A stretch of 64,000 nucleotides of DNA from an uncultured Candidatus Saccharibacteria bacterium. GTDB lineage: Bacteria > Patescibacteriota > Doudnabacteria > UBA920. The notes beneath the pieces were generated by a model. That model was not told the DNA's origin and did no database searches. It saw only the letters and a list, made by a program, of their open reading frames with translations. The translations under genes and the position numbers were made by a program. The first letter of the stretch is position 1; every line of letters starts with the position of its first letter. Location of the stretch: the NCBI GenBank assembly GCA_964532425.1, contig CAZHIA010000006.1, positions 1,343-65,342 of the forward strand, written 5' to 3'. Of the stretch, positions 6,548-49,354 are shown piece by piece.

Positions 6548-6641
6548 AACATTTGACCATTGACATGTGACATTTAACAGTAGGGCAGGCCCTTGGACTG
6601 CTTCCTTGTCAAATGTCAAAGGTTACATGTCAAATGTTAAA
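6548..6641. repeat. TGACATTTGACC-family hairpin element (copy R1)
   Basis: Arms AACATTTGACCATTGACATGTGACATTTAACAG and TGTCAAATGTCAAAGGTTACATGTCAAATGTTAAA are reverse complements; lies between lemA stop and htpX start. Confidence 0.65.
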
Positions 6642-7185
6642 ACTGGACTTTGACCGGTTGGCCTTCCGGACCCTTTTCGTCGATATCGAAGAACTCGCGT
6701 TTAGCGAAGCCGAAGATGGAGGCAAAAATATTTCCTGGGAATTTTTGGATGGCGGTATTGAAATCGCGGACTGTACCGTTGTAGAAGCGCCTCGAAGCCT
6801 GGATCTTGTCCTCGGTATCGGTAATGTCGCCCTGCAGTTGCATAAAGTTCTGGTTGGCCTTGAGTTCCGGATAGGCTTCGGCTACGGCAAACAAGCTCTT
6901 TAAGGCTCCGCTGAGCTGGTTCTCATCCTTAAGTTTTTCACCGAGAGAGCCGGCGCTCATGGCCGCGGCCCTGGCCTGCGTGACTTGCTCGAACACGCCG
7001 GATTCATGCTTGGCATAACCCTTGACCGTTTCGACGAGATTGGGGATGAGGTCATACCGGCGCTTTAATTGCACCTCGATATCGCTCCAAGCCTCGTCCA
7101 CGCGGTTGCGCTGCGTAATGAGCGAGTTGTAGAGCATAATCAGCACGGCTACGATCGCTAAAATAATGAGAATAGCTATCCACAT
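6637..7185 (-). CDS. lemA: LemA family protein
   Basis: 182 aa; N-terminal TM helix; conserved LemA block [35 protein letters not shown]. Confidence 0.8.
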
Positions 7186-7541
7186 AGGTGTTTGTGATTT
7201 CCCTTAATATTACAACAAACTGCCTTTATTATAACACTATTTAACCTGAATCAAATAACCTCGGTTCTTACCTCTGTGTAGTTTGCCCATTTATGGGTAT
7301 GGTAAGCCTTGGCCGATAAATCGGCGCACTGCACGGGAGCCAGAAATTGATTAATGAATTGGAGTTGTTTGATTCAGGTCTGTAAATTCGCAAAATGTGT
7401 TAAAATATGGTACAATTTTGTTGAAAAGTTTAAAGTTCTAACTGAGGAAACAAAAACATCCACGAATCACAAATGAACACAAATACTGCACATACCCGCA
7501 GCTAATTTGGGAGCATTTGCGCGATTCGTGATTTGTGGACA

Positions 7542-9899
7542 ATGTCATTCATCGACCAACTCAAGCAGGACGTAAACCGGTATTTGGACCGCGTGCAGGT
7601 AAAGAAACTTGCGCACACGGTGGCTTTAATAGCGCGCGAGCGGGAGGACTTGAAGACCTGGACCGATAAGGAATTACAGCTTTCCACGATTGCGCTCAAA
7701 GAAGATATCGGCAAAGGCAGGCCGCTCGATGAACTGATTATTCCGGCCTTTGCCGTGGTGAATGAGGCGGCGCGGCGGTTGCTGCATAAGTATCCGTATG
7801 ATGTGCAAATTTTGGCCGGACTAGTCATTCATTCGGGCAAGGTTGCGGAAATGAAGGCTGGTGAGGGAAAGACGTTGACCGAGACCATGCCGGTATATTT
7901 AAACGCGCTTGAGGGCCGCGGGGTGCATGTCATTACGACCAATGATTACCTGGCAGAACGCGATGCCAAAGAAATGGGGCAATTGTATAAATTCCTCGGC
8001 CTCTCCAGCGGGTATGTAACCTCGGAAATGAAAAATGATGAGCGCCGGAAGGCATATGCCGCAGACATCACCTATGTGACCAACCAGGAAGTTGGTTTTG
8101 ACTTTTTGCGCGACAATCTCGTTTACAGCCGCAAGGAACGGGTGCTGCGGCCAAAAGACCCGCTCTATTTTGGTATTGTCGACGAAATAGACAGCATACT
8201 AATTGATGAATCGCGTACGCCGCTCATTATTGCCGAACCGGTTGCGGAAGAACGGCAGTTCTACAATTTATTTACCAAGATCGCCAACAAGCTGGAAGAG
8301 GAGAAGGATTATACGGTCGACTACAAGAATAAGACTTTGGCCCTGACGAATGACGGTTTGGACGAGGTTGAACGCATGCTTGGGACGCCCATGTTCTCCA
8401 AAGAGAATCCAATGTATGTCTTTTATTTGGACGTCTGCCTGAAAGCCAGAGTGTTGTTTGAGAAGGATCGTGATTACATCGTAACCAAAGACGGTGTTGA
8501 GATTGTAGACGAGTTCACTGGCCGCGTGCTTCCCGGGCGGCGGTTTACAGATGGCGTGCACCAGGCTATTGAAGCCAAGGAAAAAGTCAAAGTTAAGGAG
8601 GCGGATCGCACGCAGGCTGCCATTACGTTCCAGAATTTTTTCCCCATGTATAAAAAATTGTCCGGCATGAGCGGGACGGTCATGGGTGCGCGCGATGAGT
8701 TCAGCCAGGTATACAAACTGGAAGTCGTACAAATTCCGACCAACCGGCCCATGGCTCGTAATGATCATAATGACCTGTTCTTTAAGACCAAGAAGGGTAA
8801 GTTTTTAGGCTTAATAAAAAAAGTTCGGCAAATTCAAGGCCGTGGCCAGCCATTGCTTATTGGCGCGCGCAACGTAGAGACTGCTCACGAAGTTGCCCGC
8901 CTGCTCGACGGACAGAATTTGCCATACCAATTGCTGACCGCCCAGGATAACCGCGCTGAAGCCCAAAAGATCATACAGGCCGGGCAGGAAAATATGATTA
9001 CCATCGCTACTAACATGGCCGGTCGCGGAACTGATATTGTCCTCGGGGAAGGCGTGCCGCAGCGCGGCGGCTTGTTTGTGTTCGGGACGGAACGCCACGA
9101 ATCGCGCCGTATCGATGACCAGCTGGTTGGCCGGGCAGGCAGGCAGGGGGATCCGGGTGAATCTCAATTCCTGATTTCCATGGAAGATGAGATTATGCAG
9201 CTGTTCGGCAGCGAGCGCATTATCGATACCATGGAGCAGTACGATATTCCCGAGGATGAGTATATCTCCGGTCCATCGCTTGACCGGGCGTTTCGCAAGG
9301 CGCAGGAATTCGTAGAGAGCAAAAATTACGATAGCCGGGTCTACCTTTATAAATACGACCGGGTGGTCAATTATCAGCGTTCCCAGCTCTATCATTTGCG
9401 CGAGCGGCTACTGGAAAACGAACCGGAGTTCACAGAGTTCACCAGGCAGGCGATCCGCAATTCGGTCGCTACAGCATTCATGCTGGGTGATCCGGAGGCG
9501 ATTTGCAAGGAGTTGCAGGACGTGTTCTATATCGACATTGATCCCAAGGAAATTAAGCAGGCCCTGCTTGGCGGTGATGCCAAAAGCCAGCAGCAGCTGG
9601 AAGAAAAATTCACTAATTTCCTGACCCAGGCGGCTGGAAAGCTTAAGGGTATACCCGAGGTTCACGCCGCGAGCCAGCAGCTTGTTTTGGAAGTTATTGA
9701 CTCGAACTGGAGCACGCATTTGGAACTTATGGATGTGCTCAAAGAAGAGGCAAACCTGTTTTCCTACGCTTCCGAGGATCCGCTGATAGATTTCATCAAG
9801 GACAGTACGACCCTCTATCAGCACATGTGTGATACGATCAGCAGGCAGTTCCTGAAATATCTTTTCCTGCACATTACGCAGGTGGGGCTGCTTAAATAG
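7542..9899 (+). CDS. secA: Preprotein translocase ATPase SecA (short form)
   Basis: GEGKTLTETMPVYLNALEGRGVHVITTNDYLAERDAKEMGQLYKFLGLS matches the SecA DEAD-motor signature. Start at ATG 7542 (ORF track TTG 7533). Confidence 0.9.
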   Translation: MSFIDQLKQDVNRYLDRVQVKKLAHTVALIAREREDLKTWTDKELQLSTIALKEDIGKGRPLDELIIPAFAVVNEAARRLLHKYPYDVQILAGLVIHSGKVAEMKAGEGKTLTETMPVYLNALEGRGVHVITTNDYLAERDAKEMGQLYKFLGLSSGYVTSEMKNDERRKAYAADITYVTNQEVGFDFLRDNLVYSRKERVLRPKDPLYFGIVDEIDSILIDESRTPLIIAEPVAEERQFYNLFTKIANKLEEEKDYTVDYKNKTLALTNDGLDEVERMLGTPMFSKENPMYVFYLDVCLKARVLFEKDRDYIVTKDGVEIVDEFTGRVLPGRRFTDGVHQAIEAKEKVKVKEADRTQAAITFQNFFPMYKKLSGMSGTVMGARDEFSQVYKLEVVQIPTNRPMARNDHNDLFFKTKKGKFLGLIKKVRQIQGRGQPLLIGARNVETAHEVARLLDGQNLPYQLLTAQDNRAEAQKIIQAGQENMITIATNMAGRGTDIVLGEGVPQRGGLFVFGTERHESRRIDDQLVGRAGRQGDPGESQFLISMEDEIMQLFGSERIIDTMEQYDIPEDEYISGPSLDRAFRKAQEFVESKNYDSRVYLYKYDRVVNYQRSQLYHLRERLLENEPEFTEFTRQAIRNSVATAFMLGDPEAICKELQDVFYIDIDPKEIKQALLGGDAKSQQQLEEKFTNFLTQAAGKLKGIPEVHAASQQLVLEVIDSNWSTHLELMDVLKEEANLFSYASEDPLIDFIKDSTTLYQHMCDTISRQFLKYLFLHITQVGLLK

Positions 9900-10023
9900 A
9901 AAATAGAAAAATTAGGTGATCAGAGGAGGTTCCCAAAATCTTTTTATTTTTCTATTTTTCTATATTTTTATTGTATTTGCCTTGGTCTTTGAAAGAATCC
10001 CGTAATTTGCTATACTATCCCAT

Positions 10024-10305: not shown

Positions 10306-10398
10306 AAGCTTTCAGCTGTCAGCTTACAGCGTATAGGTAAATCAGATTTATATTGTGAACTGGTATTCCTATAAGCTGACTGCTATAAGCTAGAAGCT
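10306..10398. repeat. AGCTTATAGGAATA-family palindromic element (copy between gatC and gatA)
   Basis: Contains GGTATTCCTATAAGCTGA identical to 55924-55940 plus AAGCTTTCAGCTGTCAGCTT local palindrome. Confidence 0.45.
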
Positions 10399-13827: not shown

Positions 13828-14061
13828 CTAAGTATGTATCTTATCCGGCGAATGCGGTGCTAATGCCTTCCTTCCGCTGCTGTATAAGGCCAGATCTTGT
13901 CGTAGCCTGCTTAGTCGCATCTTGATTCGCCGTAAGGCCTCCGCCACTTCGGTTGCCTCGCGAGCGGGGTGTTTTTTAAGCATCTGCATTTCCTCAATGA
14001 TCGCCTCGTATTCGGCTATAAAGTAATGCGGGTTCAATCCGCGTTTCCTATGGTTATGCAT
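13828..14061 (-). CDS. Hypothetical small protein
   Basis: ORF-track ORF 13828-14160, 110 aa; alternative internal start at 14061 with overlapping AGGAGG; helical, no motif. Confidence 0.3.
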   Translation of the reverse strand: MHNHRKRGLNPHYFIAEYEAIIEEMQMLKKHPAREATEVAEALRRIKMRLSRLRQDLALYSSGRKALAPHSPDKIHT

Positions 14062-14158
14062 GATCCTCCTGTACGAATGTTGGGATACAGTATACACGAC
14101 GGATGAAACCGTAATGATTAAAGCCGCGCAGGTACGTCTTATGCAAGTAAGGAGACTC

Positions 14159-15334
14159 ATGCCTATGGCAGAAAAGAATACCAGTTTACCAAAGGGTTTT
14201 TTGTTCGGAACTTCCTCTGCCGCCCATCAGGTTGAAGGTGAAAACATTTCGAGTGATTGGTGGCACTATGAAAGGATTGGCCGTCTTCCAAAATCCGGGA
14301 AATGTGCAGATCATTTTCACCGATTCCGTGAAGATTTCTCCCTGGCAGCCGGGTGCGGTATGGATGTCATGCGTATTTCCATTGAATGGAGCAGGATCGA
14401 GCCGGAAGCAGGGAGGTGGGACAGCTCCGCAATAGAACACTACCGGTCCGTCCTGGTTGCTATGAGGGCAATGGGATTGCTGCGCATCGTTACGCTGTTT
14501 CATTTTACTCTGCCACTTTGGTTTTATCGCCAGGGAGGTTTTTCGCGCAAAGCCAACATTGCATACTTTTCGAGATTCGCGAAGTTTATCGCGCATGAAC
14601 TGGGTGATGAGGTGGATATGTGGGTGACCGTGAACGAACCCGAGGTATATGCAGCAGCCGGTTTTCTCCAGGGTAGTCGGCCGCCGTTTGTGCGCAATCC
14701 ATTGCATTTTTGGTCTGTCTATCGCAATTTGCTAGACACGCACCGGGCTGCCTATGCTGCAATCAAAGAGGGTGGCAGTAATACACCGGTTGGGGTGGCT
14801 GTCAGTGCCGCATATTTTACCTCTTCACGGCGTAGTTTATCAGCCATGGCAGCTGCAGCAGGTAGACAGTGGATTTCCGGAATTGCTCGCACCTGCGATT
14901 TTATCGGTTTGAATTATTATTTTGCATATAACCTCGCATTCTCTTTGAGGCGGGGAATTCGGATCGTGAACCGGGATCAACCGTTTTCGGACATGGGATA
15001 CCGGGCCTATCCCGAAGGTCTGCTGCGAGTCCTCAGAGATTTTTCGCGCTTTGGGAAGCCGTTGTATATTACAGAGAATGGTATTGCGAATGCTGCTGAA
15101 GATATGCGCGTGCGGTTCATTGTTGAGCATATAGAAGCTGCTCTGAGCGCGCGTGAACAGGGGGTTGATGTGAGAGGGTACTTGTATTGGTCGCTTACTG
15201 ATACCTACGAATGGCAGCAGGGATTTGATTTAAAATTTGGACTGGTGGAGATCGACTACAGCACCTTGGAGCGTAAACCGCGAGCGAGTTATTATGAATT
15301 GAAAAGATTGATAGGATCGAAGAATATACACTAA
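14159..15334 (+). CDS. Glycoside hydrolase family 1 (beta-glucosidase/beta-galactosidase-like)
   Basis: LPKGFLFGTSSAAHQVEGE N-terminal signature, acid/base TVNEP, nucleophile ITENG. Start at ATG 14159 with AGGAG RBS 5 nt upstream (ORF track 14060). Confidence 0.8.
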   Translation: MPMAEKNTSLPKGFLFGTSSAAHQVEGENISSDWWHYERIGRLPKSGKCADHFHRFREDFSLAAGCGMDVMRISIEWSRIEPEAGRWDSSAIEHYRSVLVAMRAMGLLRIVTLFHFTLPLWFYRQGGFSRKANIAYFSRFAKFIAHELGDEVDMWVTVNEPEVYAAAGFLQGSRPPFVRNPLHFWSVYRNLLDTHRAAYAAIKEGGSNTPVGVAVSAAYFTSSRRSLSAMAAAAGRQWISGIARTCDFIGLNYYFAYNLAFSLRRGIRIVNRDQPFSDMGYRAYPEGLLRVLRDFSRFGKPLYITENGIANAAEDMRVRFIVEHIEAALSAREQGVDVRGYLYWSLTDTYEWQQGFDLKFGLVEIDYSTLERKPRASYYELKRLIGSKNIH

Positions 15335-15338
15335 TACC

Positions 15339-15376
15339 AACGATGATCATTCGCGGGCGCGAATGATCATCGTTTT
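15339..15376 (+). terminator. Intrinsic terminator after GH1 gene
   Basis: Perfect 16-bp stem AACGATGATCATTCGCG-GGC-GCGAATGATCATCGTT followed by TTTG. Confidence 0.7.
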
Positions 15377-15410
15377 GAAGATTAATGGGGGTTTGGTGGT
15401 GTCGAGAAAT

Positions 15411-15451
15411 AAAACACCCGCTCGGCGTCAGTACGAAGAGCGGGTGGTTTT
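15411..15451 (-). terminator. Bidirectional terminator serving minus-strand gene 15468-15857
   Basis: AAAA-CACCCGCTC-loop-GAGCGGGTG-GTTTT. Confidence 0.6.
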
Positions 15452-15467
15452 GTGTAATCCCCAGCGG

Positions 15468-15857
15468 CTAGCGCGATGGTTTTTTTAGGTACATGGTCGG
15501 TTCGGGTGCGTGCTGGACCCAGCGCATGACTTTGCGGCAAAACTCAAAGTGCAGCGGGCACTTGGGGCTTTGCAGCGTTTGCTTGAAGAACGTTTGGTTC
15601 AGTGTCCAATCGTCGATGCCTGAGAGTCTCCGCATCTTGCGCTCGATGGGGCGTTTGGCGTCCTTGTACACTTCGGAAAACAGCACGTAGTGATCGAGGC
15701 CAATGCCTTCGAACATGAGACAGACATGGTCTATGACCAAGTCGCGGGCCGCGCCCTTGTGCTGCTTGAGCAGCGCTTTTCGCGTGTTAATCAGCCGGAG
15801 CTCTTGGTATGCGCTCCGGTACTGCTTGTCTTTCCGCATGCTTGCTTGCTTATCCAT
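15468..15857 (-). CDS. Hypothetical protein
   Basis: 129-aa ORF; basic, no motif recognised. Confidence 0.4.
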   Translation of the reverse strand: MDKQASMRKDKQYRSAYQELRLINTRKALLKQHKGAARDLVIDHVCLMFEGIGLDHYVLFSEVYKDAKRPIERKMRRLSGIDDWTLNQTFFKQTLQSPKCPLHFEFCRKVMRWVQHAPEPTMYLKKPSR

Positions 15858-15877
15858 TATCCAGTGATTCTCCTATT

Positions 15878-16165
15878 TCAGTAGGTGGCTTTCATAGCGC
15901 GCAATCCGCGCGCCGTGCGGACGATTTTTGATAACCGAACCACTTCTCCGAGTTCCGGCCGTTTCTGCTGGTGCCAGACCGGTTTTGTGATGGTGAATGT
16001 GATTTTTTCAGATTCATCCTCAGGCTGGCAGACGGCATACGCGTGTTTATTGGGCTTGCGCGGCTGGACGATTTCCAAGATCACGGCAATTACTGGCGGG
16101 CTGCTTCCTGGTAGCTGTCCCGTGGGGGGGTCCGACATTCTTCCTCCTATTGACTCTGCGGACAA
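15878..16165 (-). CDS. Hypothetical protein
   Basis: 95-aa ORF immediately upstream of and co-directional with 15468-15857. Confidence 0.3.
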   Translation of the reverse strand: MSAESIGGRMSDPPTGQLPGSSPPVIAVILEIVQPRKPNKHAYAVCQPEDESEKITFTITKPVWHQQKRPELGEVVRLSKIVRTARGLRAMKATY

Positions 16166-16272
16166 AGGTGTAGAGTATCACAATTTACTACGGATGTCCA
16201 TTGCTAAAATGTCGGAGCAAAGTAAAAACCGGCCAACCTAAGGTTGGCCGGTTCAATGTCCGACGAGGCGGA

Positions 16273-17052
16273 CTAGCGCTTTACAAACCTGCGGCTACAC
16301 AACGCGGCGCCGGCCAGTCCTAGACCGGTCAACGCCATTGTGGCCGGTTCAGGAACTTCGCCACCCTTCGGCGGCGGCATGATGATCATCGTGGCAGATG
16401 TGGACGGCCCAGCCGTGCTCCAGCCAGAAATGTCGGTGTAAGGACCCCAAGAGTATGCCCCTTTGGCGCGTCCTTGGTCGAAGATCTGGTCAGTGCGAAG
16501 GTTCATCGACATCCACCAGTTGTCGTAGTTACTAAAGCCACTCCGTGTCTGGGTGGTGGTGCCGGATCCCGGACAAGCACCATTCTCGATGCCGGTGCAG
16601 TCCCAGTTCGAGACAGTACTTGCGAGCAATATCTCTAGGGAGTTGCCCTTGCCACCGCTCATGTACAACTCGCCAGTGAGCGGGTAAAAGGTAAATCCGA
16701 AATAGTTGCTCAGGGTGTTTGTGAGTGTGGCCGTCTGATTATAGTTGGTCCCTGCAGCGCCACTGAGCAGATCGGTGTTATTCCAGAACGTCCTGGTGTC
16801 CTGCACCGAACTGCTGAAGCCGCCGCTTACCCACGGATTGCTGGGGTCGCCCGACAGATTACTCCATGTGTCGAGTGTGAGATCAATGTAGTGACCCTGA
16901 CCCTGACTGGTGCAAAGGGCCAATCCGGCGCCGAGAGGCGTGCATGAGCCGGAGCCTGTGCCTTCCGAGAGTAAATTTGTCGTTATCGGGGCTGCGGTCG
17001 CTGAAACGACGACGGCCAGCATGATCAGAATCGCACAGATCGTATTGCGCAT
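16273..17052 (-). CDS. Secreted protein with C-terminal PEP-CTERM sorting signal
   Basis: N-terminal signal peptide MRNTICAILIMLAVVVSATAAP; C-terminus EVPEPATMALTGLGLAGAALCSRRFVKR (PEP motif, hydrophobic helix, basic tail); Gly/Ser/Thr/Asn-rich body. Confidence 0.7.
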   Translation of the reverse strand: MRNTICAILIMLAVVVSATAAPITTNLLSEGTGSGSCTPLGAGLALCTSQGQGHYIDLTLDTWSNLSGDPSNPWVSGGFSSSVQDTRTFWNNTDLLSGAAGTNYNQTATLTNTLSNYFGFTFYPLTGELYMSGGKGNSLEILLASTVSNWDCTGIENGACPGSGTTTQTRSGFSNYDNWWMSMNLRTDQIFDQGRAKGAYSWGPYTDISGWSTAGPSTSATMIIMPPPKGGEVPEPATMALTGLGLAGAALCSRRFVKR

Positions 17053-17100
17053 CTAAAATCCTCCTTGGGGACTGTTTTGATGTGCTGCCTGGTTGTGACG

Positions 17101-17243
17101 TGCTGCAATGAGCTTATAAAAGGCCTCATTGCAGCAGAACGTTTGAGTATGCGTCACCAGGTACGGTGACCGGATAATATAGCATAATTACGCGAAATTG
17201 TCAAGACCTCTACTTTGACAATTACTCGGGAGTTTTATACACT
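17101..17243 (+). promoter_or_regulatory. Divergent control region: three palindromes plus candidate sigma70 promoter of island gene A
   Basis: 12-bp perfect IR TGCTGCAATGAG/CTCATTGCAGCA (17101-17136); palindrome GTCACCAGGTACGGTGAC (17153-17170); AATTGTCAA-N10-TTGACAATT (17196-17223) overlapping -35 TTGACA 17215-17220, 17-nt spacer, -10 TACACT 17238-17243. Confidence 0.45.
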
Positions 17244-17287
17244 AGTACGATTGTTTGTTTTCAAACGAGAAATACAAAGGAGGGGAT

Positions 17288-18169
17288 ATGAACATTCCCG
17301 CAATTATCAAAGCGGTGGAAGCGGATGATTTTTCCTTTATGGAAGGCATCCGTTTAGGAAAGAAGGCTTATACACTCACTGTGGAAGGGCTGAAAAAGTC
17401 AGTGAAGGATGGGACATTCCCCAAAATTCACGGATACGCGGCGCTTGCCCGAGTGACCGTGAGTAATGATGCGCATGTGACCCATCTTGCCCATCATGGA
17501 CTCATCGACAAATCCGGCGAAAAGGGTGTTTGGGTTTTTCTGCCAGCTTTGTTTGTCGGACTCAAAGCCGAGCAATCGGACAATGGGCAGCCTTCGGCAG
17601 GAAATCATTCGCAAGACGCCAAATCCAAACAGATCTTCTACGCGGTTAAGTCCCGCGCAGTCGAAAACATGGTGGTCTTCACCAAGGATTTGCGACAGCA
17701 GGTGGCGGACGAAGTCGGCTGTCGAGCCAGTTACGTGGGGCAGGTCATGCTCGGCGCGGAGGAGCGCGGTTTGGTCAGGCTCCAGGATCGCAAGATGCGC
17801 GGTTTTGGCTACCAGATCGTTTTTCTGGAAGAAGCCCAGCCGCCTGCGGCCGATCCGCGTATCGTGGATACGGATCAGGAAGAGCCTGGAGAAGTTCCGG
17901 TGCCGGAAGATCCCCCGAACAATCAACCTCAACCGGCCCAGGCTGCGGCTTCTGTCGGTGATGCGCCCGCGGATGTTTCCGCGCAATCGATCATCCGACT
18001 GTATGATGACGAGATCGCCGAATGCGACCGGCAGATCGAAGCGGAAACCGCGCGGATGAAACATGCTCTGGAAACCCTGCAGGCCAAGAAGGATGGCCTT
18101 TCGCGGATGCGCGACGAGGTCCGGCATAAGGCCGAGCAGGTCCGCGAGTCCATCGTGAATAAGCAGTAA
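17288..18169 (+). CDS. Hypothetical protein with winged-helix-like segment and C-terminal coiled coil (island gene A)
   Basis: RBS AAGGAGGGG then ATG 17288; segment KDLRQQVADEVGCRASYVGQVMLGAEERGLVRL resembles an HTH; acidic Pro-rich linker; C-terminal heptad-rich tail. Confidence 0.55.
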   Translation: MNIPAIIKAVEADDFSFMEGIRLGKKAYTLTVEGLKKSVKDGTFPKIHGYAALARVTVSNDAHVTHLAHHGLIDKSGEKGVWVFLPALFVGLKAEQSDNGQPSAGNHSQDAKSKQIFYAVKSRAVENMVVFTKDLRQQVADEVGCRASYVGQVMLGAEERGLVRLQDRKMRGFGYQIVFLEEAQPPAADPRIVDTDQEEPGEVPVPEDPPNNQPQPAQAAASVGDAPADVSAQSIIRLYDDEIAECDRQIEAETARMKHALETLQAKKDGLSRMRDEVRHKAEQVRESIVNKQ

Positions 18170-18176
18170 GCCACAA

Positions 18177-18208
18177 GCCCGAAGCTAAAAGCTTCGGGCC
18201 TCTTTTTT
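18177..18208 (+). terminator. Intrinsic terminator after island gene A
   Basis: GCCCGAAGC-TAAAA-GCTTCGGGC followed by CTCTTTTTT. Confidence 0.7.
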
Positions 18209-18212
18209 ACTC

Positions 18213-18241
18213 TTGATAATTAACAGCTTATAGCCTATGAT
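18213..18241 (+). promoter_or_regulatory. Candidate sigma70 promoter of island gene B
   Basis: TTGATA (18213-18218), 17-nt spacer, TATGAT (18236-18241). Confidence 0.5.
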
Positions 18242-18266
18242 AGGAGGAAATCTTCCAGGAGGAATT

Positions 18267-19481
18267 ATGCGAGAATCGCAGGGGAAAGCCGTAGCGAGGG
18301 CGTACTTTTACCAGAGTTTTCTGCCTTCGTGCCTGACCGCTTCGCAGCTGCAACACGGCAATTTTCTCCTGCTCTTGGGAGAACAACCGCGCGAGCTGCC
18401 GTATCTGCAGGAACTGCGCGTGCCGATGAATCAGATCTGGTCGGTGGAAAACCAGCACGCGATATTCTTGAAGCAGCTTCAATTCCGTGAACAGGGGCAT
18501 TTGCCGATCTCTCTCTACTACGGGGACATGGCTGAGTATGTGCAGTACCTTCTCCACGAAAATAAAGAGTTCCTAGTTCTCGGCTTGGATGTTGAAGGCA
18601 GTTTCTTAAACCAGCTTGATCCGGCCATGACTTCGGTCATGCTCTTCTGCTGGAGGGCTCCGCAGTCCGTGGTGGCCACCTATTCCAGCGTGGGTCGTGA
18701 CCGCTTCATGGTTTGGGAAGGGTTGAAATCCCTGGCGCTGTTTCTGGCCATTGCGCCAAAACAGACAGCCGAATTTTTGGCGGTCTTAAGCCTGCGGTAC
18801 GAGCGGGCTGGCTTCACCGAGCCGGTGAGTATGGTCTTAAGAGACTTGTTTTGGATCAGAAGCCACTTGGAGCATACGCTTATGGCTTCCGTCGTGGTTG
18901 GTGCCGTACCGGGCAGCTTTTACCGTGAGTGCGCGCAATTACAGGAGAGTCTGTGGCAAGCGGTGAAGAAACAGCGCCGCTTTCCGCTGTCCATGGGTTT
19001 TCTCCAGGCGTGCGTCAAATCATGGCTGAAAGATAATCGTATCGCATTCGGCAACCACTTTAACAAAAACCGCAGCTTAGGGCTCTCTTGGGATACGCTG
19101 GCCCACGTGGTATACAATGCCGAGCATCCCTGGTCGCAGCTTTGCTACTTTGCCAAGTTCCGTAATGACGGCAATTTGATCTCCTGCAAGGTATGGCTGC
19201 TCCAAGTGCTCGAATTGTTTATGCGTCAGCCGCTTCTCTACATTGCCCGTTCCGGCAAAACCTACGAGCTGGACGGTCGCGTGCGCGACCTCTCGGAGCT
19301 GGCATCAGTAGCCTTGCTGAAAGGCAATAATCGAACCGATCGCAAAGGCGACCGGGAGATATACCGGCTGTTCAAACCGCGCCAGCTGGAAGCACGAACG
19401 TTGGTGCCGCATGTGCGCGGCATCACGCAGACCATTCTTGCTATTCGCAAGAGCAACGGGTATCATGGCAATAGCATGTAG
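18267..19481 (+). CDS. Hypothetical protein (island gene B)
   Basis: About 404 aa from ATG 18267 preceded by CAGGAGGAAT RBS (track ORF starts 18237); no recognised domain. Confidence 0.5.
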   Translation: MRESQGKAVARAYFYQSFLPSCLTASQLQHGNFLLLLGEQPRELPYLQELRVPMNQIWSVENQHAIFLKQLQFREQGHLPISLYYGDMAEYVQYLLHENKEFLVLGLDVEGSFLNQLDPAMTSVMLFCWRAPQSVVATYSSVGRDRFMVWEGLKSLALFLAIAPKQTAEFLAVLSLRYERAGFTEPVSMVLRDLFWIRSHLEHTLMASVVVGAVPGSFYRECAQLQESLWQAVKKQRRFPLSMGFLQACVKSWLKDNRIAFGNHFNKNRSLGLSWDTLAHVVYNAEHPWSQLCYFAKFRNDGNLISCKVWLLQVLELFMRQPLLYIARSGKTYELDGRVRDLSELASVALLKGNNRTDRKGDREIYRLFKPRQLEARTLVPHVRGITQTILAIRKSNGYHGNSM

Positions 19482-19509
19482 TGCGCCAACACCAGGAGGC
19501 AACAATATC

Positions 19510-19752
19510 ATGGCTCATACCAAACTACGCAAGAACCATGCAGATAATGCTCCAGTTGCACCGAAAGGGACTCCGTACCTGGACGGTACCGGGAACCTGA
19601 CGCAGTGGGGTAAAAAGCGAATCAAGTTTGTCGGCGCGAAATGCGTCAACGTCAACCAGCTCATAGCCAAACTGCCGCCGTACGTGGCAGAACTGGTAGA
19701 CCGCCAGACGCTGATCGCCTTGCTGGCCATCTCGCACCGGCCGTCATCGTAA
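19510..19752 (+). CDS. Small hypothetical protein (island gene C)
   Basis: 80 aa from ATG 19510 with AGGAGG RBS 10 nt upstream; MAHTKLRKNHADNAPVAPKGTPYLDGTGNLTQWGKKRIKFVGAKCVNV. Confidence 0.4.
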   Translation: MAHTKLRKNHADNAPVAPKGTPYLDGTGNLTQWGKKRIKFVGAKCVNVNQLIAKLPPYVAELVDRQTLIALLAISHRPSS

Positions 19753-19799
19753 GTGGCTGTCACAGCCATTCTTAGCTCACCTTCGGGTGGGCTTTTTTT
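19752..19799 (+). terminator. Tandem hairpins plus T7 tract after gene C
   Basis: TGGCTGTCACAGCCA and AGCTCACCTTCGGGTGGGCT followed by TTTTTTT. Confidence 0.55.
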
Positions 19800-19800
19800 C

Positions 19801-19867
19801 TTGACAATTGCCCGCTGATTTATTATGATTTACCGATATCTTATAAGGCATTTCGCTGTCATAAGAT
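19801..19867 (+). promoter_or_regulatory. Near-consensus sigma70 promoter plus operator-like palindrome for the gene D-E pair
   Basis: TTGACA (19801-19806), 17-nt spacer, TATGAT (19824-19829); downstream IR ATCTTAT-N16-ATAAGAT (19838-19867) before RBS GAAGGAGGGG. Confidence 0.6.
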
Positions 19868-19897
19868 AGGCATCTTAACAGTTTAGAAGGAGGGGAA

Positions 19898-23151: not shown

Positions 23152-23163
23152 GTCGCAGTATGC

Positions 23164-23197
23164 CGCCTGGCTCCGCAAACGGAGCCAGGCGTTTTTT
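23164..23197 (+). terminator. Intrinsic terminator after gene E
   Basis: CGCCTGGCTCCG-CAAA-CGGAGCCAGGCG followed by TTTTTT. Confidence 0.75.
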
Positions 23198-23280
23198 ATT
23201 TTAGTGAGCTTACTGGCCGAATATCATGTTGATTGTAATTGCGGATTTTTTCCTATTCGGCAACAGACCTTAAACGCAAT

Positions 23281-23317
23281 AAAAAAGCCGCCCGCACAGA
23301 AAACGTGCGGGCGGCTG
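23281..23317 (-). terminator. Intrinsic terminator of convergent gene F (minus strand)
   Basis: AAAAAA-GCCGCCCGCAC-AGAAAA-CGTGCGGGCGGC; T-run on minus strand. Confidence 0.7.
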
Positions 23318-23322
23318 AATGA

Positions 23323-25170: not shown

Positions 25171-25214
25171 ACCCCCTCCTGTAAAGTTGTATAAGTGCCT
25201 CAGTTAAAATCTCT

Positions 25215-27221: not shown

Positions 27222-27276
27222 GGTATACATCTGTATATCTGTTAACTAAATTATACCATTAACAAAACAAACTTCC

Positions 27277-29960: not shown

Positions 29961-30021
29961 TTCAAAATTCAAAGTGCAAAATTCAAAATTTTGAACTTTT
30001 CATTTTTAACTTTTAATTCTC

Positions 30022-34038: not shown

Positions 34039-34064
34039 CCGATAGGTGGTCTGAAAACCAAAAT

Positions 34065-34102
34065 AAAACTAAAAATGCAATGTTATATGCATTTTTAGTT
34101 TT
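34065..34102 (+). terminator. AT-rich perfect 15-bp hairpin after proS
   Basis: AAAACTAAAAATGCA-ATGTTAT-TGCATTTTTAGTTTT. Confidence 0.5.
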
Positions 34103-34135
34103 ATATTGTCTTGGTGAAAGTTGTCACGTTTTGTA

Positions 34136-35418: not shown

Positions 35419-35492
35419 AACATTTAACATGTGACATTTGACCTTTGACATGTATCTCAGTTAAATGTCAATTGTCAAATGTCAAAGGTTGT
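35419..35492. repeat. TGACATTTGACC-family hairpin element (copy R4) inside the mreB-mreC operon
   Basis: Arms AACATTTAACATGTGACATTTGACCTTTGACATGT / TAAATGTCAATTGTCAAATGTCAAAGGTTGTT; ends 7 nt before mreC ATG. Confidence 0.65.
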
Positions 35493-36302: not shown

Positions 36303-36410
36303 TATAATTGACAAAATTTAAAAAATTGACATAATTGACAAAAATAAAATGCAGTCTGGTTTCCTAATTTTGTCAATTTTGTCAATTATGTCAATTTTGT
36401 CAATTAGTCT
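36303..36410. repeat. AT-rich palindromic TTGACAAAA/TTTTGTCAA element, left copy flanking mreD
   Basis: AAATTTAAAAAATTGACATAATTGACAAAA - ATAAAATGCAGTCTGGTTTCCTAATTTT - GTCAATTTTGTCAATTATGTCAATTTTGTCAATT. Confidence 0.55.
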
Positions 36411-36944
36411 ATGAAATACCTTCTCTACGCCCTCACCATCATCGTCCTCGCCGGTCTCAACATCGGTCTGTTCCCATTTATTCGTATTATGGGGGCCGCA
36501 CCGAGTTTGTTATTGGTTTTTTTGACTATCTCAGCGCTCGAGAAGGACTCCCTGGACTTTATTTTTATCGCGTTTTGTGGGGGGCTTATTGCGGATGCTT
36601 ATAGTGGTGCATACTTCGGTGCGTATACGCTGGCCTTTCTGTTGCTTTCCCTTCTGCTGTACCTGACCGTGCAGCGCTTGTTCGCCGTAAACATGAACTG
36701 GAAATACTTGGTAGTAACCATGGCCATTGTGACTATATTTGTCAATTGTGCAGTCTGGTTATACTCCGTGTTGGTCTATAAGGCAGGCTTGGCCCCGCTA
36801 GCCATAGAATGGCATCTGGTTCGCAAGCTGATACTTCCTGAATCGGCCTATAACATTTTGATGCTCTACCCCATCTACATTCTTTCCGTATTTTTGCGCA
36901 ACACCATTGCCGATCTGGCCATGAAGAAACACTACCTTAGGTAA
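36411..36944 (+). CDS. mreD: Putative rod shape-determining protein MreD (polytopic membrane protein)
   Basis: 177 aa, 5-6 TM helices, located between mreC and PBP2 gene; assignment by position and topology. Confidence 0.5.
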   Translation: MKYLLYALTIIVLAGLNIGLFPFIRIMGAAPSLLLVFLTISALEKDSLDFIFIAFCGGLIADAYSGAYFGAYTLAFLLLSLLLYLTVQRLFAVNMNWKYLVVTMAIVTIFVNCAVWLYSVLVYKAGLAPLAIEWHLVRKLILPESAYNILMLYPIYILSVFLRNTIADLAMKKHYLR

Positions 36945-36948
36945 TTGA

Positions 36949-37048
36949 GCAAAATTTAAAAAATTGACAAAATTGACAAAATTAGGAAACCAGACTGCAT
37001 TTTATTTTTGTCAATTATGTCAATTATGTCATTTTTGTCAATTCTTCT
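36949..37048. repeat. Same AT-rich palindromic element, right copy flanking mreD with inverted core
   Basis: Core AGGAAACCAGACTGCATTTTAT is the reverse complement of the core in 36303-36410 while the TTGACAAAA arms are in the same orientation. Confidence 0.55.
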
Positions 37049-39032: not shown

Positions 39033-39100
39033 AGTTGACATGTGACATTTAACCTTTGACATATATGGTCACATGTTACGTGTTAAAGGTTAAATGTTTT
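39033..39100. repeat. TGACATTTGACC-family hairpin element (copy R5)
   Basis: AGTTGACATGTGACATTTAACCTTTGACAT-ATATG-GTCACATGTTACGTGTTAAAGGTTAAATGTTTT; ends 4 nt before folD ATG. Confidence 0.65.
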
Positions 39101-42245: not shown

Positions 42246-42341
42246 TATAATCCGAATGACCCAAATGCTCGCAATCCGAATGACCCGAATCGAACGGGCC
42301 CATTCGGGGTATTTGGATGCTTATTCGGAGGATTAGGATTA
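42246..42341. repeat. ATTCGG/CCGAAT-word imperfect palindrome (family P copy)
   Basis: ATAATCCGAATGACCCAAATGCTCGCAATCCGAATGACCCGAATCGAACGGG|CCCATTCGGGGTATTTGGATGCTTATTCGGAGGATTAGGATTAT. Confidence 0.5.
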
Positions 42342-42938: not shown

Positions 42939-42958
42939 GGGGCGGCCATTGGCCGCCC
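42939..42958. repeat. GC-rich palindrome GGGGCGGCCATTGGCCGCCC (copy 1)
   Basis: Near-identical copy at 47470-47489. Confidence 0.4.
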
Positions 42959-43089: not shown

Positions 43090-43113
43090 ATCTGTTCCGC
43101 CAGCTGGCGGATT
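43090..43113. repeat. 24-bp core ATCTGTTCCGCCAGCTGGCGGATT shared exactly with 27136-27159 (opposite orientation)
   Basis: Contains perfect palindrome CCGCCAGCTGGCGG; embedded in a rplK leader region rich in GTAGGTATCTGT/ATTCGGATTC words. Confidence 0.45.
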
Positions 43114-43602: not shown

Positions 43603-43627
43603 GTTGGAAACATGGTAAAATTAACTA

Positions 43628-43720
43628 AATGACAAAAATTAAAAAAATGACAAAAACGACGAAAATGAACTGTAGCTATTTTTGTTCACTCTTGTCAATT
43701 TTGTTCATTTTTGCTCATTA
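43628..43720. repeat. AT-rich imperfect palindrome (ATGACAAAAAT / ATTTTTGCTCAT arms)
   Basis: AAATGACAAAAATTAAAAAAATGACAAAAACGACGAAAATGAAC...TTTTTGTTCACTCTTGTCAATTTTGTTCATTTTTGCTCATT. Confidence 0.35.
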
Positions 43721-44487: not shown

Positions 44488-44519
44488 AAGCGGATGAGAT
44501 TACTTTTGTGAACAGCCAA

Positions 44520-44634
44520 TAATATTAATTCCTAATTCCCAATTCCTAATTTCCAATCAAAAACCCAAATGCAAAAATGACTTAATTTGGGCATTGGAAA
44601 TTTTATTGGGAATTAGATATTGGATATTGGAAAT
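44520..44634. repeat. TTCCAAT/ATTGGAA-word imperfect palindrome (family C)
   Basis: AATTCCTAATTCCCAATTCCTAATTTCCAAT ... CCCAAATGC-loop-GCATTTGGG ... GGAAATTTTATTGGGAATTAGATATTGGATATTGGAAATT. Confidence 0.5.
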
Positions 44635-44636
44635 TT

Positions 44637-44975
44637 ATGTCTTTAAAAAAAGCTTATCTCTACCTTGTCTCCGTCATCTCCCTCGTCATTATGGTGGTCG
44701 GCGCTATTCAGTTGCTCGATATGGCCCTTAAGACCTGGGTCTTCACCAAAGCGGATCAGGATTATTATTCCGCACCGTGCATGTCTGCCAAACCGGTTTC
44801 AGCCACCGGCACGCCGGTTGAATGCACTCCGGAAGAACGAGCTGCTCAAAAGCAACAGCAGGCTGACATGCGTACTGCCCAAAAACAGCGTCAGGCTTCC
44901 ACAGCCATTGCTATGATCATTGTGGCTACCCCAGTCTGGTTCTTCCACTGGAGGCTGGCCCGAAGGGAAGCGTAA
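44637..44975 (+). CDS. Small hypothetical membrane protein
   Basis: 112 aa; TM helices at both ends (LYLVSVISLVIMVVGAI; AIAMIIVATPVWFFHW). Confidence 0.4.
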   Translation: MSLKKAYLYLVSVISLVIMVVGAIQLLDMALKTWVFTKADQDYYSAPCMSAKPVSATGTPVECTPEERAAQKQQQADMRTAQKQRQASTAIAMIIVATPVWFFHWRLARREA

Positions 44976-46429: not shown

Positions 46430-46431
46430 GA

Positions 46432-47469: not shown

Positions 47470-47489
47470 GGGGCGGCCACTGGCCGCCC
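47470..47489. repeat. GC-rich palindrome GGGGCGGCCACTGGCCGCCC (copy 2)
   Basis: Differs by one base from 42939-42958. Confidence 0.4.
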
Positions 47490-47550: not shown

Positions 47551-48102
47551 ATGAATAACCATATTCTCGCCGTTGTTGGCTTGCCGGGTGCAGGCAAGAC
47601 TGAAGCAACTAATTATATAATTGAAAAAACCGGTTGGTCAAAGGTGTATTTTGCCCAGCCGACATTTGACGTATTGGCGGAACGAGGCAAGGAAATCAAT
47701 GAAGCTAATGAGCGGGCTGTACGGGAGGAATTGCGAGCCACACATGGCATGGGTGCCATGGCCATTTTGAGCATTCCCAAAGTCAAGGAGCTGTTTCAAA
47801 ATTCTAGCGTGATCATTGAAAGCTTATATAGTTGGGAGGAATATCTGGCAGTCAAACAGGAGTTCGGCGACGCATTCAAGGTGCTGGCAATCTTCGCTTC
47901 ACCTCAGATTCGGACAGAACGCATGGGAAAGCGCCCGGTCAGACCGCTCACGCCTGAGCAGCTTATCTCCCGGGATTATTCCCAAATCGAAAATCTCCAT
48001 CAGGCTGGACCAATCGCCCGTGCCGATTGGACGGTTATCAACGAAGGGACAGTAGGGGAGATGAAAGGGAAGATTGATGAAATATTGGCGCAACTTAAAT
48101 AA
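47551..48102 (+). CDS. P-loop nucleoside/nucleotide monophosphate kinase-like protein
   Basis: Walker A VVGLPGAGKTE (adenylate/cytidylate kinase-like); shares C-terminal block N-GTV-E-GKIDEIL with 48733-49272; substrate unknown. Confidence 0.5.
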   Translation: MNNHILAVVGLPGAGKTEATNYIIEKTGWSKVYFAQPTFDVLAERGKEINEANERAVREELRATHGMGAMAILSIPKVKELFQNSSVIIESLYSWEEYLAVKQEFGDAFKVLAIFASPQIRTERMGKRPVRPLTPEQLISRDYSQIENLHQAGPIARADWTVINEGTVGEMKGKIDEILAQLK

Positions 48103-48215
48103 TTTCAAATTACAAATATCAAATTTCAAATCAAACTTTAATGCTTTAATAATAAATTATTATTTTAGTCATTGGTCATTGATTTGACATTTGAAATTAG
48201 AAATTGGAAATTTAA
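48103..48215. repeat. AT-rich palindrome of TTTCAAAT/ATTTGAAA words (divergent family C)
   Basis: TTTCAAATTACAAATATCAAATTTCAAATCAAA ... TGACATTTGAAATTAGAAATTGGAAATTT. Confidence 0.35.
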
Positions 48216-48264
48216 AGACTAAATATCTAGTTCAAATTAACCTCGATTAGCCTTAAGATCGCTT

Positions 48265-48705
48265 ATGAAAGTAAAGATCAAACGTTTAGATCCTTCTATT
48301 CCTCTCCCTGAATATCACACCACCGAATCCGCCGGTTTTGATATTGGTTCGGCGATTGATGTTGTTATCCAGCCGGGACAGGTGTTCAAGATCCCAACCG
48401 GACTAGTTTTTGCTTCGCCTAAAGGTTACTTTTTAATGATCTCCTCCCGCAGTAGTCTCGCGCTCAAGAAAGGCCTTGTCATGGCCAACGGCATTGGCGT
48501 CGTAGACCCCGACTATGCGGGCCCGAATGACCAAGTGCACATTATTGTTCATAACATTACCACAGAACCGGTTGAGGTAAAAAAAGGCGAGCGTTTAGCT
48601 CAAGGTATCTTTTTGCCTATCGAGCAGGCTGAGTGGGAAGAGACGGACCAAATGCGGGAGACTGATAGGGGAGGGATAGGGTCGACGGGGGGATATAATA
48701 ATTAA
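48265..48705 (+). CDS. dut: dUTP diphosphatase
   Basis: 146 aa; dUTPase motifs GFDIGS, SSRSSLALKKG, GVVDPDYAGP. Confidence 0.85.
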   Translation: MKVKIKRLDPSIPLPEYHTTESAGFDIGSAIDVVIQPGQVFKIPTGLVFASPKGYFLMISSRSSLALKKGLVMANGIGVVDPDYAGPNDQVHIIVHNITTEPVEVKKGERLAQGIFLPIEQAEWEETDQMRETDRGGIGSTGGYNN

Positions 48706-48735
48706 TTCCCAATTCCTAATTTCCAATTTCCAATG
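48704..48735. repeat. Half-copy of family C element
   Basis: TTAATTCCCAATTCCTAATTTCCAATTTCCAATG matches left arm of 44520-44634. Confidence 0.4.
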
Positions 48736-49272
48736 ATTATAGGATTAGTGGGGGAAAAATTAGCAGGGAAGGATGTGGTGGCGGAGTACTTGGAAAAAAA
48801 GTATGGGGCTTTTTATATTAAGTACAGCACAATCTTGGATGAGATTTTAAATATTCTCGATCTTCCCGTGAGCCGCCGCAATGAAATAGATTTGGGTGCG
48901 GGTCTGCGCGAGGCGTTTAAACGCAGTGTGCTCTGGGGAGCGGTGAAAAAGAAGGTACTTGAGTCGTCCGCTGATTTGAAAGTTATCGGTAGCATAAGGC
49001 TTGAGGACGAGTTCGAAAGCGCGCGAAGCCTGGGGGCGAAGGTTTTGTATGTGACCGCGCCGATCGATTTGCGCTATCAGCGCGCCTTGGTACGCCGCGA
49101 AAAAACCGATGACGGCCAACAGACGTTTGAACAGTTTATTGCCCAGGAACAGGAATGGACCGAAGCTGGAATTCCTGAGCTCGGCAAAAAGGCGGACTTT
49201 CGGATAGAGAATGTTGGGACGGTGGAGGAGTTGTATGGGAAGATTGATGAGATACTATCAACCGTAGCCTAA
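48733..49272 (+). CDS. P-loop kinase-like protein, paralogue of 47551-48102 with degenerate Walker A
   Basis: GLVGEKLAGKD; shared C-terminal NVGTVEELYGKIDEIL block. Confidence 0.45.
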   Translation: MIIGLVGEKLAGKDVVAEYLEKKYGAFYIKYSTILDEILNILDLPVSRRNEIDLGAGLREAFKRSVLWGAVKKKVLESSADLKVIGSIRLEDEFESARSLGAKVLYVTAPIDLRYQRALVRREKTDDGQQTFEQFIAQEQEWTEAGIPELGKKADFRIENVGTVEELYGKIDEILSTVA

Positions 49273-49354
49273 GTGACAGACATTTGACCTGTGACATTTG
49301 ACATTTGACCAATTGCAGACGGTCAAAGGTCAAATGTTAAATGTTAAATGTTTT
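49273..49354. repeat. TGACATTTGACC-family hairpin element (copy R6)
   Basis: GTGACAGACATTTGACCTGTGACATTTGACATTTGACC-AATTGCAGAC-GGTCAAAGGTCAAATGTTAAATGTTAAATGTTTT; loop resembles R3 loop. Confidence 0.65.

Follow-up and report, generated by a model that had tools for sequence, protein, structure and literature searches.

The DNA analysed here is a 64-kb stretch (64,000 nt; hereafter the window) of contig CAZHIA010000006.1, positions 1,343 to 65,342 of the forward strand (GenBank assembly GCA_964532425.1), from an uncultured Candidatus Saccharibacteria bacterium that GTDB places in the Doudnabacteria of the Patescibacteriota. Its gene names were confirmed by a Pfam scan of 64 open reading frames (ORFs) and include miaA, frr, an rseP-like gene, the series mreB-mreC-mreD-PBP2-folD and tmk. 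Genomes of the Candidate Phyla Radiation (CPR), or Patescibacteria, are about 1 Mb in size and highly streamlined. Dispersed among the genes of the window are six copies, R1 to R6, of a short repeat that is referred to below as the TGACATT family. An earlier note, made from the sequence alone, had described these loci as a hairpin family resembling repetitive extragenic palindromes (REPs) and bacterial interspersed mosaic elements (BIMEs). The six loci and their repeated words were all found where that note had placed them.

Six loci built from heptamer arrays

R1 (6548-6641; minimum free energy -34.9, z = -6.3) lies between two minus-strand genes, lemA and one for an M48 peptidase; the TAA stop codon of lemA falls inside its end unit, and 6 nt separate it from the ATG of the peptidase gene (6541, minus strand). 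R2 (26016-26051, or 26012-26051 as annotated on the minus strand) is a single arm of five TGACCTT/TAACCTT units located in frame within miaA. R3 (30590-30660) is positioned 10 nt past the frr stop codon and 65 nt ahead of the rseP-like gene. R4 (35419-35492) fills the mreB-mreC spacer, 3 nt past the stop codon and 6 nt ahead of the ATG at 35499, and thus is located inside the mreB-mreC operon as had been noted. R5 (39033-39100) ends 4 nt ahead of the folD ATG, and R6 (49277-49354) fills the spacer that separates tmk from a DNMK-like gene, 4 nt past the stop codon of the latter and 4 nt ahead of the ATG of the former at 49359. The distances of 6, 4 and 4 nt measured ahead of mreC, folD and tmk agree with the 4-7 nt given earlier. 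The placement at gene junctions does not hold for R2, inside miaA, and R3 ends 65 nt away from the next start codon instead of close to it.

A search of the window for TGACATTTGACC at no more than two mismatches gave 32 matches where 5.2 were expected, a count that was not reached in any of 100 shuffles preserving dinucleotides. The six loci account for 27 of these 32 matches. Five of the loci (R1, R3, R4, R5 and R6) are hairpins with arms of 24-35 nt and an arm complementarity of 78-90%, whose fold energies correspond to z values of -3.6 to -7.0 relative to shuffled sequences. The words are therefore well above background frequency, and the two complementary arms of about 32 nt that the earlier note had assigned to every locus were recovered everywhere except at R2. 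The proposed relationship of the R3 and R6 loops was borne out as well, the two elements being 81% identical across 68 nt with the loop included. The sequence of R4 was found at 100% identity on two independent metagenome assemblies, which excludes an assembly artefact peculiar to this record.

The arms are not composed of half-sites of 10-12 nt, as first described, but of tandem heptamers. Tandem Repeats Finder reported a period of 7 at all six loci, and what had been taken for a half-site corresponds to two adjoining heptamers. A logo of 42 units gave the consensus T-R-A-C-M-T-K, in which positions 3 and 4 (AC) are invariant in all 42 units, while position 2 is restricted to G and A, position 5 to A and C, and position 7 to T and G. 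Of the eight combinations that this consensus allows, seven were observed. A second family of the window, AGCTNNN, is likewise made of an invariant core with variable positions, the AG being kept in 27 of 27 units.

A wider set of foldback hairpins

The TGACATT family is one of at least seven foldback hairpin families in the window, with unit periods of 7, 9 or about 11 nt. Their common architecture is a loop of 7-45 nt enclosed by two inverted arrays, each with 3-5 imperfect copies of the short unit in tandem. The period-9 family (AATTGACAA), the AGCTNNN family and the CCGAAT type are represented by three copies each, the AAATAGA family and a "long" type of about 150 nt by two each, and the TAATTCC family by one and a half; the AATTTCA, TTCAAAA, ACAGATA and period-11 (GAAATACAATA) types occur once each. 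A detector that allows no gaps (minimum arm length 20 nt, minimum complementarity 72%, loop of at most 60 nt) returned 18 hairpins, all of them intergenic, where 0.05 were expected from sequence shuffled within 100-nt blocks. Addition of gapped elements by hand raised the set to 24 elements with a combined length of 2,152 nt, which amounts to 23.5% of the intergenic DNA or 3.4% of the whole window. They are found at 21 of 63 gene junctions, including all junctions of mreB-mreC-mreD-PBP2-folD as well as gatC-gatA and ftsE-ftsX.

Homology of whole elements and turnover among relatives

Copies of the same family align end to end, loops included, in agreement with the earlier view of a true dispersed repeat family. 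Conservation of the loops between copies indicates that the whole hairpin is the repeated entity, and the inverted arms extend to the ends of the elements, as do the terminal inverted repeats of miniature inverted-repeat transposable elements (MITEs). The clearest case of dispersal in both orientations is the period-9 family, copies 1 and 2 of which flank mreD: copy 1 (36304-36406) fills the mreC-mreD spacer and copy 2 (36943-37048) the mreD-PBP2 spacer. The two are 92% identical across 101 nt when aligned inverted and 85% identical when aligned directly; as the loop is asymmetric and the inverted match is the better one, they represent one element in both orientations. Copy 3 (AAATGACAA; 43617-43719) precedes an SPFH/Band7 gene.

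Apart from an exact match, the homologues of MreC in the protein database are at most 59% identical (about 57-59% in the nearest relatives), and those that bear a name belong to Candidatus Doudnabacteria or to the "Patescibacteria group". The window also encodes a DUF5671 protein (44637-44975); proteins with this domain are typical of CPR. The gene order miaA...frr-rseP...mreBCD-PBP2-folD is common to four relatives, which allowed the comparison of orthologous junctions that had been suggested as a check on the repeats. Both the presence and the family of the elements proved to vary. One relative, L125, carries a TGACATT-type hairpin between mreC and mreD, its loop being similar to the R3 and R6 loops, and an AGCT-type hairpin between mreB and mreC, where L123 has a CCGAAT-type hairpin. 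At other orthologous junctions the relatives have no element, and the spacer measures only 4, 6 or 9 nt. The mreD-PBP2 spacer measures 104 nt in the window versus 4, 38, 6 and 36 nt in the four relatives, and the PBP2-folD spacer 112 nt versus 78, 44, 9 and 66 nt. The density of hairpins is 2.8 per 10 kb in the window versus 0.5-1.9 per 10 kb in these relatives. Two contigs with the same MreB were 100% identical to the window and are thus uninformative about polymorphism.

Position relative to stop codons, start codons and reading frames

Of 15 co-directional junctions, 12 have a hairpin whose end is no more than 10 nt ahead of the ATG, and 12 have one that begins no more than 10 nt past the stop codon or overlaps it; the stops of lemA, secA, mreD and dut are located within or at the first unit. 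Since empty spacers in the relatives are 4-10 nt long, this geometry is as expected from insertion into a tiny spacer. For the analysis of Shine-Dalgarno (SD) sites, the start codon was set by a fixed first-ATG rule and GGAG, GAGG or AGGA was taken as the core. None of 14 hairpin-abutted genes has an SD core, as compared with 15 of 50 other genes (Fisher p = 0.028), and a Mann-Whitney test of the SD duplex energies of abutted and other genes gave p = 0.053. An alternative procedure that picked the start with the best SD site within 150 nt was dropped because it selected internal false starts. The longest ORFs of mreC (35445), tmk (49298), the Band7 gene (43711) and the M48 peptidase gene (5591-6619) start at TTG or ATG codons inside hairpin arms, and automatic start calling would probably over-extend these four genes into the repeat.

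[quoted passage not shown] Overall, the stop asymmetry towards the 5' arm amounts to 45 versus 24 closed frames of 69, and it runs in the opposite direction in the AGCT, AATTTCA and TTCAAAA families. An ATG in every frame of the 3' arm was found for R6 alone (13 versus 10 frames overall). The suggestion that element ends supply start contexts stands only loosely: 14-15 genes are abutted by the hairpins and lack SD cores, but ATG-rich 3' arms are not general across the families. It was also considered that folding might bring an SD site located 5' of the stem next to the ATG. Inspection by eye found such a site, AGGT, at the mreD end only, where it matches the position of a functional SD site in L123; none was seen at the other junctions.

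R2 is in frame in the miaA ORF (25266-26258), where it encodes ...KGQRLQVKGQMF..., and the coding strand of miaA carries the stop-free complement of the R2 units. The loop at about residues 51-83 of MiaA, between the motifs GTGKV.G.W and YK.I.H, is hypervariable in length (~12-40 residues) and in sequence among five Doudnabacteria-like genomes. R2 is thus a half element in an already hypervariable loop; no full palindrome is found inside any gene of the window. The variable MiaA loop of the relatives is not derived from heptamers, so that there is no sign of repeated capture at this site. A second variable insertion occurs in MiaA of two relatives, near alignment column 270.

RNA folding, transcription signals and nuclease genes

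Folding gave the sense strand no advantage in stability over the antisense strand, the former being favoured in 10 of 21 elements (Wilcoxon p = 0.65; 48 versus 40 G-U pairs). Pairing of the arms was examined for equal-length arms with 5000 permutations. The arms of one copy pair at 20.4 of 26 positions with each other and at 20.9 of 26 with arms of other copies, and 4763 of 5000 permutations were as good or better, so that copy-specific compensatory pairing is absent. As own arms fit no better than those of other copies, the complementarity arises because the two arms repeat one and the same consensus unit. Neither the strand comparison nor the pairing test thus gave any sign of selection at the RNA level. 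No match to Rfam 15 was obtained at the gathering score anywhere in the window.

None of the periodic hairpins qualifies as an intrinsic terminator, terminator-like structures numbering 26 in the window as compared with 23.3 in shuffled sequences; classical GC-rich terminators are present elsewhere in the window. Among the long hairpins, just one scored as terminator-like: a near-perfect AT-rich hairpin of 21 bp (34059-34108, 95% complementary) that lies in the 324 nt preceding mreB and scores on both strands. Promoter-like matches are enriched between 29.5 and 49.5 kb (51 versus 22 expected). Strong ones are confined to the period-9 family, whose elements contain near-consensus sigma-70-like matches of 10-11/12 on both strands (TTGACA, 16 nt, CATAAT, with a preceding TG). 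Such matches are located at 36308-36335 (+), 36403-36367 (-) and 37041-37014 (-), some of them directed antisense into mreC or mreD.

Two ORFs of the DUF559 family (PD-(D/E)XK, Vsr-like endonuclease) are found at 31923-32273, between rseP and proS, and at 50179-50526, between tmk and thyX. They are 46% identical to each other, and each is intergenic and flanked by inverted repeats of 30-35 nt with 71-80% complementarity. In appearance they are palindromic insertions with an ORF inside, which makes them candidate selfish or mobilising nucleases. In the relative L124 (4955-5436), a PDDEXK_3 ORF of 126 aa between frr and rseP is directly bracketed by inverted arms of CACAGAT/TCACGGAT-type tandem units in the style of the hairpin arms, which indicates that a stem of this kind can hold an ORF in its "loop". 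Unrelated ORFs are inserted at the same frr-rseP junction in L125 and L126. No parental autonomous element was found in the window, and both the PDDEXK_3 and the DUF559 leads have arms of other types. Further along the window, an ORF of 564 aa (50595-52289) contains two stretches that match the ThyX (Thy1) domain; this is about twice the usual length of ThyX and suggests an internal duplication or fusion.

Heptamer units and foldback hairpins in other organisms

A scan with the unit pattern TRACMTKTRACMTKTRACMTKTRAC, using one genome per species, returned at least 120 stretches where about 1 was expected from base frequencies by our estimate. The matches listed are mainly from heterocystous cyanobacteria and Bacteroidota, with further ones in Acidobacteriota, Chloroflexota and eight CPR loci, and nearly all of them are plain one-directional arrays. 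A hairpin of the same polarity as in the window (T-R-A-C arm first) is formed at 3 of the 8 CPR loci and at none of the 112 others among the matches listed (Fisher p = 2e-4). These hairpins belong to Saccharibacteria, Staskawiczbacteria and one further Patescibacteria genome (L006, L091 with two copies, and L106). The array also occurs on 101 viral contigs, on none of which it takes the hairpin form. The Patescibacteria genome L106 contains four different hairpin families within 8 kb. In an Alloprevotella metagenome-assembled genome (L009), hairpins with arms of AAGGTTAT/AAGGTCTTT-type tandem units lie between ORFs at 3199-3312 and 5002-5100. The hairpins of L106 and L009 indicate that the foldback of tandem units is not confined to this genome or to CPR. 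No description of such elements in CPR was found in the searchable literature, which leaves out most subscription journals, so that an earlier description may exist.

Remaining hairpins and other features of the window

Of the AGCTNNN family, one copy (10307-10398) fills the gatC-gatA spacer, another (55868-55960) the ftsE-ftsX spacer, and the third (56883-56966) follows immediately past the ftsX stop codon. CCGAAT-type hairpins adjoin the nusG ATG (42251-42316), lie between convergent genes (61838-61937) and occur at 63709-63809. The AAATAGA family is found past the stop codon of a clpB-like gene on the minus strand (224-292) and at 9895-9972, where the first unit contains the TAG stop of secA. 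The TAATTCC hairpin (44516-44636) adjoins the ATG of the DUF5671 gene, and a single TAATTCC arm (48704-48734) constitutes the entire dut-DNMK spacer. The AATTTCA heptamer hairpin (48101-48216) starts immediately past a stop codon, and the TTCAAAA heptamer palindrome (29959-30011) is located between a BNR-repeat gene and frr. The ACAGATA-type hairpin and the period-11 hairpin are at 27154-27240 and 27905-27990, respectively. The "long" type comprises a palindrome of about 150 nt, 5 nt ahead of the ATG of a recX-like gene (3118-3275), and a copy 3 nt ahead of the rplI ATG (57076-57195) that is 78% identical to it across 113 nt.

Several loops of different families have a similar core of the form TGCAG(N)C..GG (AACTGCAGCCGG, AATTGCAGACGG, AATGCAGTCTGG and AAGCAGTCCAAGG; TTTGCAGTTCCG in a copy of a relative), at about 30623, 36350, 49311 and 3230 in the sense direction and at 6590 on the minus strand. 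As a common loop motif TGCAG is not established: it occurs in 4 of 23 loops, a count reached by that word alone in 1 of 2000 shuffles but by any G/C-rich 5-mer in 153 of 2000, so that its significance is marginal (~0.08) once multiple words are allowed for. Two GC-rich perfect palindromes occur twice each, GGCGGCCAYTGGCCGCC at 42941-42957 and 47472-47488 and CCGCCAGCTGGCGG at 27139-27152 and 43097-43110, against expectations of 0.01 and 0.04. The CCGCCAGCTGGCGG palindrome adjoins CAGAT-type repeat arms, and both are closer in appearance to classical REPs than the heptamer hairpins are. The region from about 14000 to 26000 has a GC content of 0.52-0.56, as compared with about 0.49, and may be a compositionally distinct island. 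It contains several large ORFs without a Pfam match (17255-25170) and a PEP-CTERM protein, many of these having strong AGGAGG SD sites, and R2 is the only element of the hairpin families there.

Interpretation

We favour, with roughly even confidence, the explanation that these hairpins are small non-autonomous foldback palindromic families dispersing into the short operon spacers of CPR, the six TGACATT loci being copies of one family. It brings together an architecture beyond chance, homology of whole elements including their loops, occurrence in both orientations, turnover at orthologous junctions, empty spacers of 4-10 nt and abutted genes without SD cores. As to how the elements move, fold in vivo and are tolerated, we infer the following course. 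They would spread as non-autonomous DNA into new spacers, by means of a trans-acting enzyme or through recombination or template switching, and their arms would lengthen and shorten by slippage, one unit per step. Elements inserted within operons would be co-transcribed, and the stem would then fold the insert away and leave the stop and start codons adjacent. A ribosome ending the upstream gene may open the base of the stem and expose the start site, so that translational coupling would be kept, and this would account for the tolerance of the elements in essential operons (mreBCD-mrdA-folD, gatCA, ftsEX). Because the forward orientation of the main families has stops in all three frames, only the stop-free complement would persist in a coding region, as in the case of R2 in miaA.

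Several observations weigh against this explanation. The tight constraint on the unit, with AC in every one of the 42 units and only the R, M and K alternatives at the variable positions, is not obviously expected of a decaying selfish element. The arms are not mirrored copy by copy, which makes it less likely that the palindromes formed recently and offers no positive indication that pairing is kept. Neither a target-site duplication nor a precise alignment to an empty site was obtained, the flanks being only 0-10 nt of stop/start context and the nearest relatives only about 57-59% identical in MreC. No transposase or Y1/RAYT (REP-associated tyrosine transposase) was detected among the 64 ORFs scanned against Pfam within the window. 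The stop/start geometry is explicable by short ancestral spacers alone and provides no independent evidence for coupling, and the depletion of SD sites is modest (p ~0.03-0.05), with 70% of all genes lacking an SD core anyway.

Other readings assign the elements a function. The hairpins could be selected cis-acting structures of operon mRNAs, serving to protect upstream segments against 3'-exonucleases as REPs do in E. coli, processing by RNase III/E or the setting of cistron ratios, with dispersal being secondary. Their stability far above that of shuffled sequences (z down to -10), their exact placement between cistrons of essential operons, the hairpins, though of other families, that relatives often have at the same junctions, and the unusually large share of intergenic DNA in a streamlined genome all speak for this. 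We nevertheless regard it as unlikely; against it stand the equal folding of the two strands, the lack of copy-specific compensatory pairing, the presence of one family in both orientations in a single operon, several orthologous junctions that are empty (4-9 nt), and the lack of any Rfam family match. It could also be that the unit, not the stem, is functional, as a platform for a binder of single-stranded RNA or DNA (of the cold-shock-domain, S1-like or ring-shaped kind) that places one subunit per ~7 nt and controls SD-less starts; such a role has been proposed in print for TAACTGA heptamer arrays (PMC4679880). The position-specific constraint in the TGACATT family, with its seven of eight combinations, and the similar pattern in the AGCT family fit this well, as does the equal fit of arms to other copies, which means that the consensus and not the pairing is kept. 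Recurrence of the T-R-A-C unit in hairpins of distant CPR classes and the end of the arrays 0-10 nt ahead of SD-less start codons point in the same direction. However, at least seven units with periods of 7, 9 and ~11 nt side by side in so small a genome would call for either a large number of specificities or a highly tolerant binder, folding of the hairpin puts the units into base pairs where single strands would be needed, the 5' arms hold the same arrays at a distance from the start codon, and plain arrays in cyanobacteria, Bacteroidota and viral contigs have no common context. This second proposal is accordingly rated as rather improbable. A bolder reading, which we consider a long shot, is a translational device specific to CPR, in which a stem between a stop codon and an SD-less start would allow the terminating ribosome to cross the stem base and re-initiate, in a bacterial equivalent of ribosome shunting or of hairpin-bridged coupling, or in which T-R-A-C-M-T-K would be the platform for a dedicated single-strand-binding regulator.

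That the elements are transcription signals, either internal promoters formed by arrays of -35 TTGACA boxes or intrinsic terminators and attenuators, is very improbable. TTGACA or TTGACC is indeed contained in the TGACATT and AATTGACAA units, and both the regional enrichment of promoter-like matches and the high scores of the period-9 elements on both strands agree with the promoter version; the TGACATT copies, however, give a single weak (9/12) promoter-like match, and most other families lack TTGACA. The terminator version is opposed by the absence of terminator-like features from the periodic hairpins, by the classical GC-rich terminators present elsewhere in the window, and by the harm that termination within mreBCD-mrdA, gatCA and ftsEX would cause. 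Finally, an origin by chance in low-complexity AT-rich spacers, or as an assembly artefact, is scarcely credible. Short words do recur more easily in AT-rich spacers, but the 32 matches against 5.2, the 18 hairpins against 0.05 under local-composition shuffling, the full-length homology and the occurrence of R4 on two assemblies already refute it.

About one quarter of the intergenic DNA in this window consists of palindromes of tandem units located within operons for cell shape, division, tRNA amidation and nucleotide metabolism. Selfish elements, as in the explanation favoured here, would mean that miniature mobile DNA flourishes even where the genome is minimal and symbiotic, and that it is able to reshape the ends of genes and the loops of proteins. 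Functional elements would instead offer a route to coupling or controlling translation without Shine-Dalgarno sites. Should the translational-device reading be true, essential operons would be subject to a hidden post-transcriptional layer in genomes that seldom rely on SD sites, and the same logic could account for the heptamer repeats of cyanobacteria, Beggiatoaceae and Bacteroidota. In either case the elements tie CPR to the heptamer repeats (STRR, short tandemly repeated repetitive sequences, and TAACTGA) of cyanobacteria, sulfur bacteria and Bacteroidota, with the hairpin as a testable structural signature. On the practical side, they break contigs, mislead the calling of start codons and could act as strain markers.

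Comparison with known repeat systems

Heptamers of the STRR type were reportedly described from cyanobacteria by Mazel et al. in 1990. The TAACTGA direct repeats of Beggiatoaceae, Cyanobacteria and Bacteroidetes have 7-nt units and mostly end a few nucleotides (most commonly 1 nt) ahead of a start codon; in most cases no SD site can be recognised for the downstream gene, and some arrays overlap upstream stop codons (MacGregor 2015, PMC4679880). In forward orientation these repeats stop all three frames, copies internal to ORFs are usually reversed, and one inverted case was found among 170 sets (PMC4679880). The elements described here are similar in being short imperfect arrays of 7-nt units, sometimes "split" by related units and mostly intergenic, which end by SD-less starts, overlap some upstream stops and stop three frames in the forward direction, the one ORF-internal copy being reversed. 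They differ in that the arrays are paired in inverted orientation as hairpins of 25-40 bp, that the loops are conserved between copies and the host belongs to CPR, and that one genome mixes many unit families and periods (7, 9 and ~11 nt) where the TAACTGA repeats have one dominant unit.

Eukaryotic foldback (FB) elements have long inverted arms made of short tandem repeats, with a variable number of units and a variable centre with or without an ORF. The arm architecture observed here resembles theirs in form only, since there is no sequence relationship, the scale is far smaller and the host is a bacterium. Palindromic elements of Rickettsia insert in frame into genes. The tolerance of the R2 arm in frame in MiaA is comparable, with the difference that R2 is only half an element. 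With bacterial MITEs (Correia/NEMIS, RUP and the MITEs of Coxiella) the present elements share a size of 70-160 nt, a palindromic and non-autonomous nature, a probable co-transcription with neighbouring genes and variable presence at orthologous sites. No target-site duplication, parental insertion sequence or transposase was identified in the 64 kb analysed, and the arms differ in being internally tandem-repetitive.

REPINs are extragenic inverted doublets of REPs that form hairpins in ssDNA or mRNA and show compensatory changes across the hairpin; every REPIN family has an associated RAYT gene with REPs on its flanks (Bertels and Rainey 2011, PMC3116915). Like REPINs, the elements of the window are non-autonomous hairpin doublets, present as several families per genome and dispersed intergenically, including within operons. 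The REP unit, however, is a single conserved, usually GC-rich imperfect palindrome of 20-40 nt, whereas the present arms are AT-rich arrays of 7-nt units without a REP-like palindrome; in addition, compensatory changes are absent and the 64 kb contain no RAYT gene. The REP/BIME-like label of the earlier note is thus apt as a likeness to small non-autonomous repeats and does not extend to membership: the elements resemble REPINs and MITEs in behaviour, and of the features that define REPs and BIMEs only the hairpin shape was found within these 64 kb. The closest kinds among known systems are the heptamer STRR/TAACTGA arrays on the one hand and the REPIN/MITE elements on the other.

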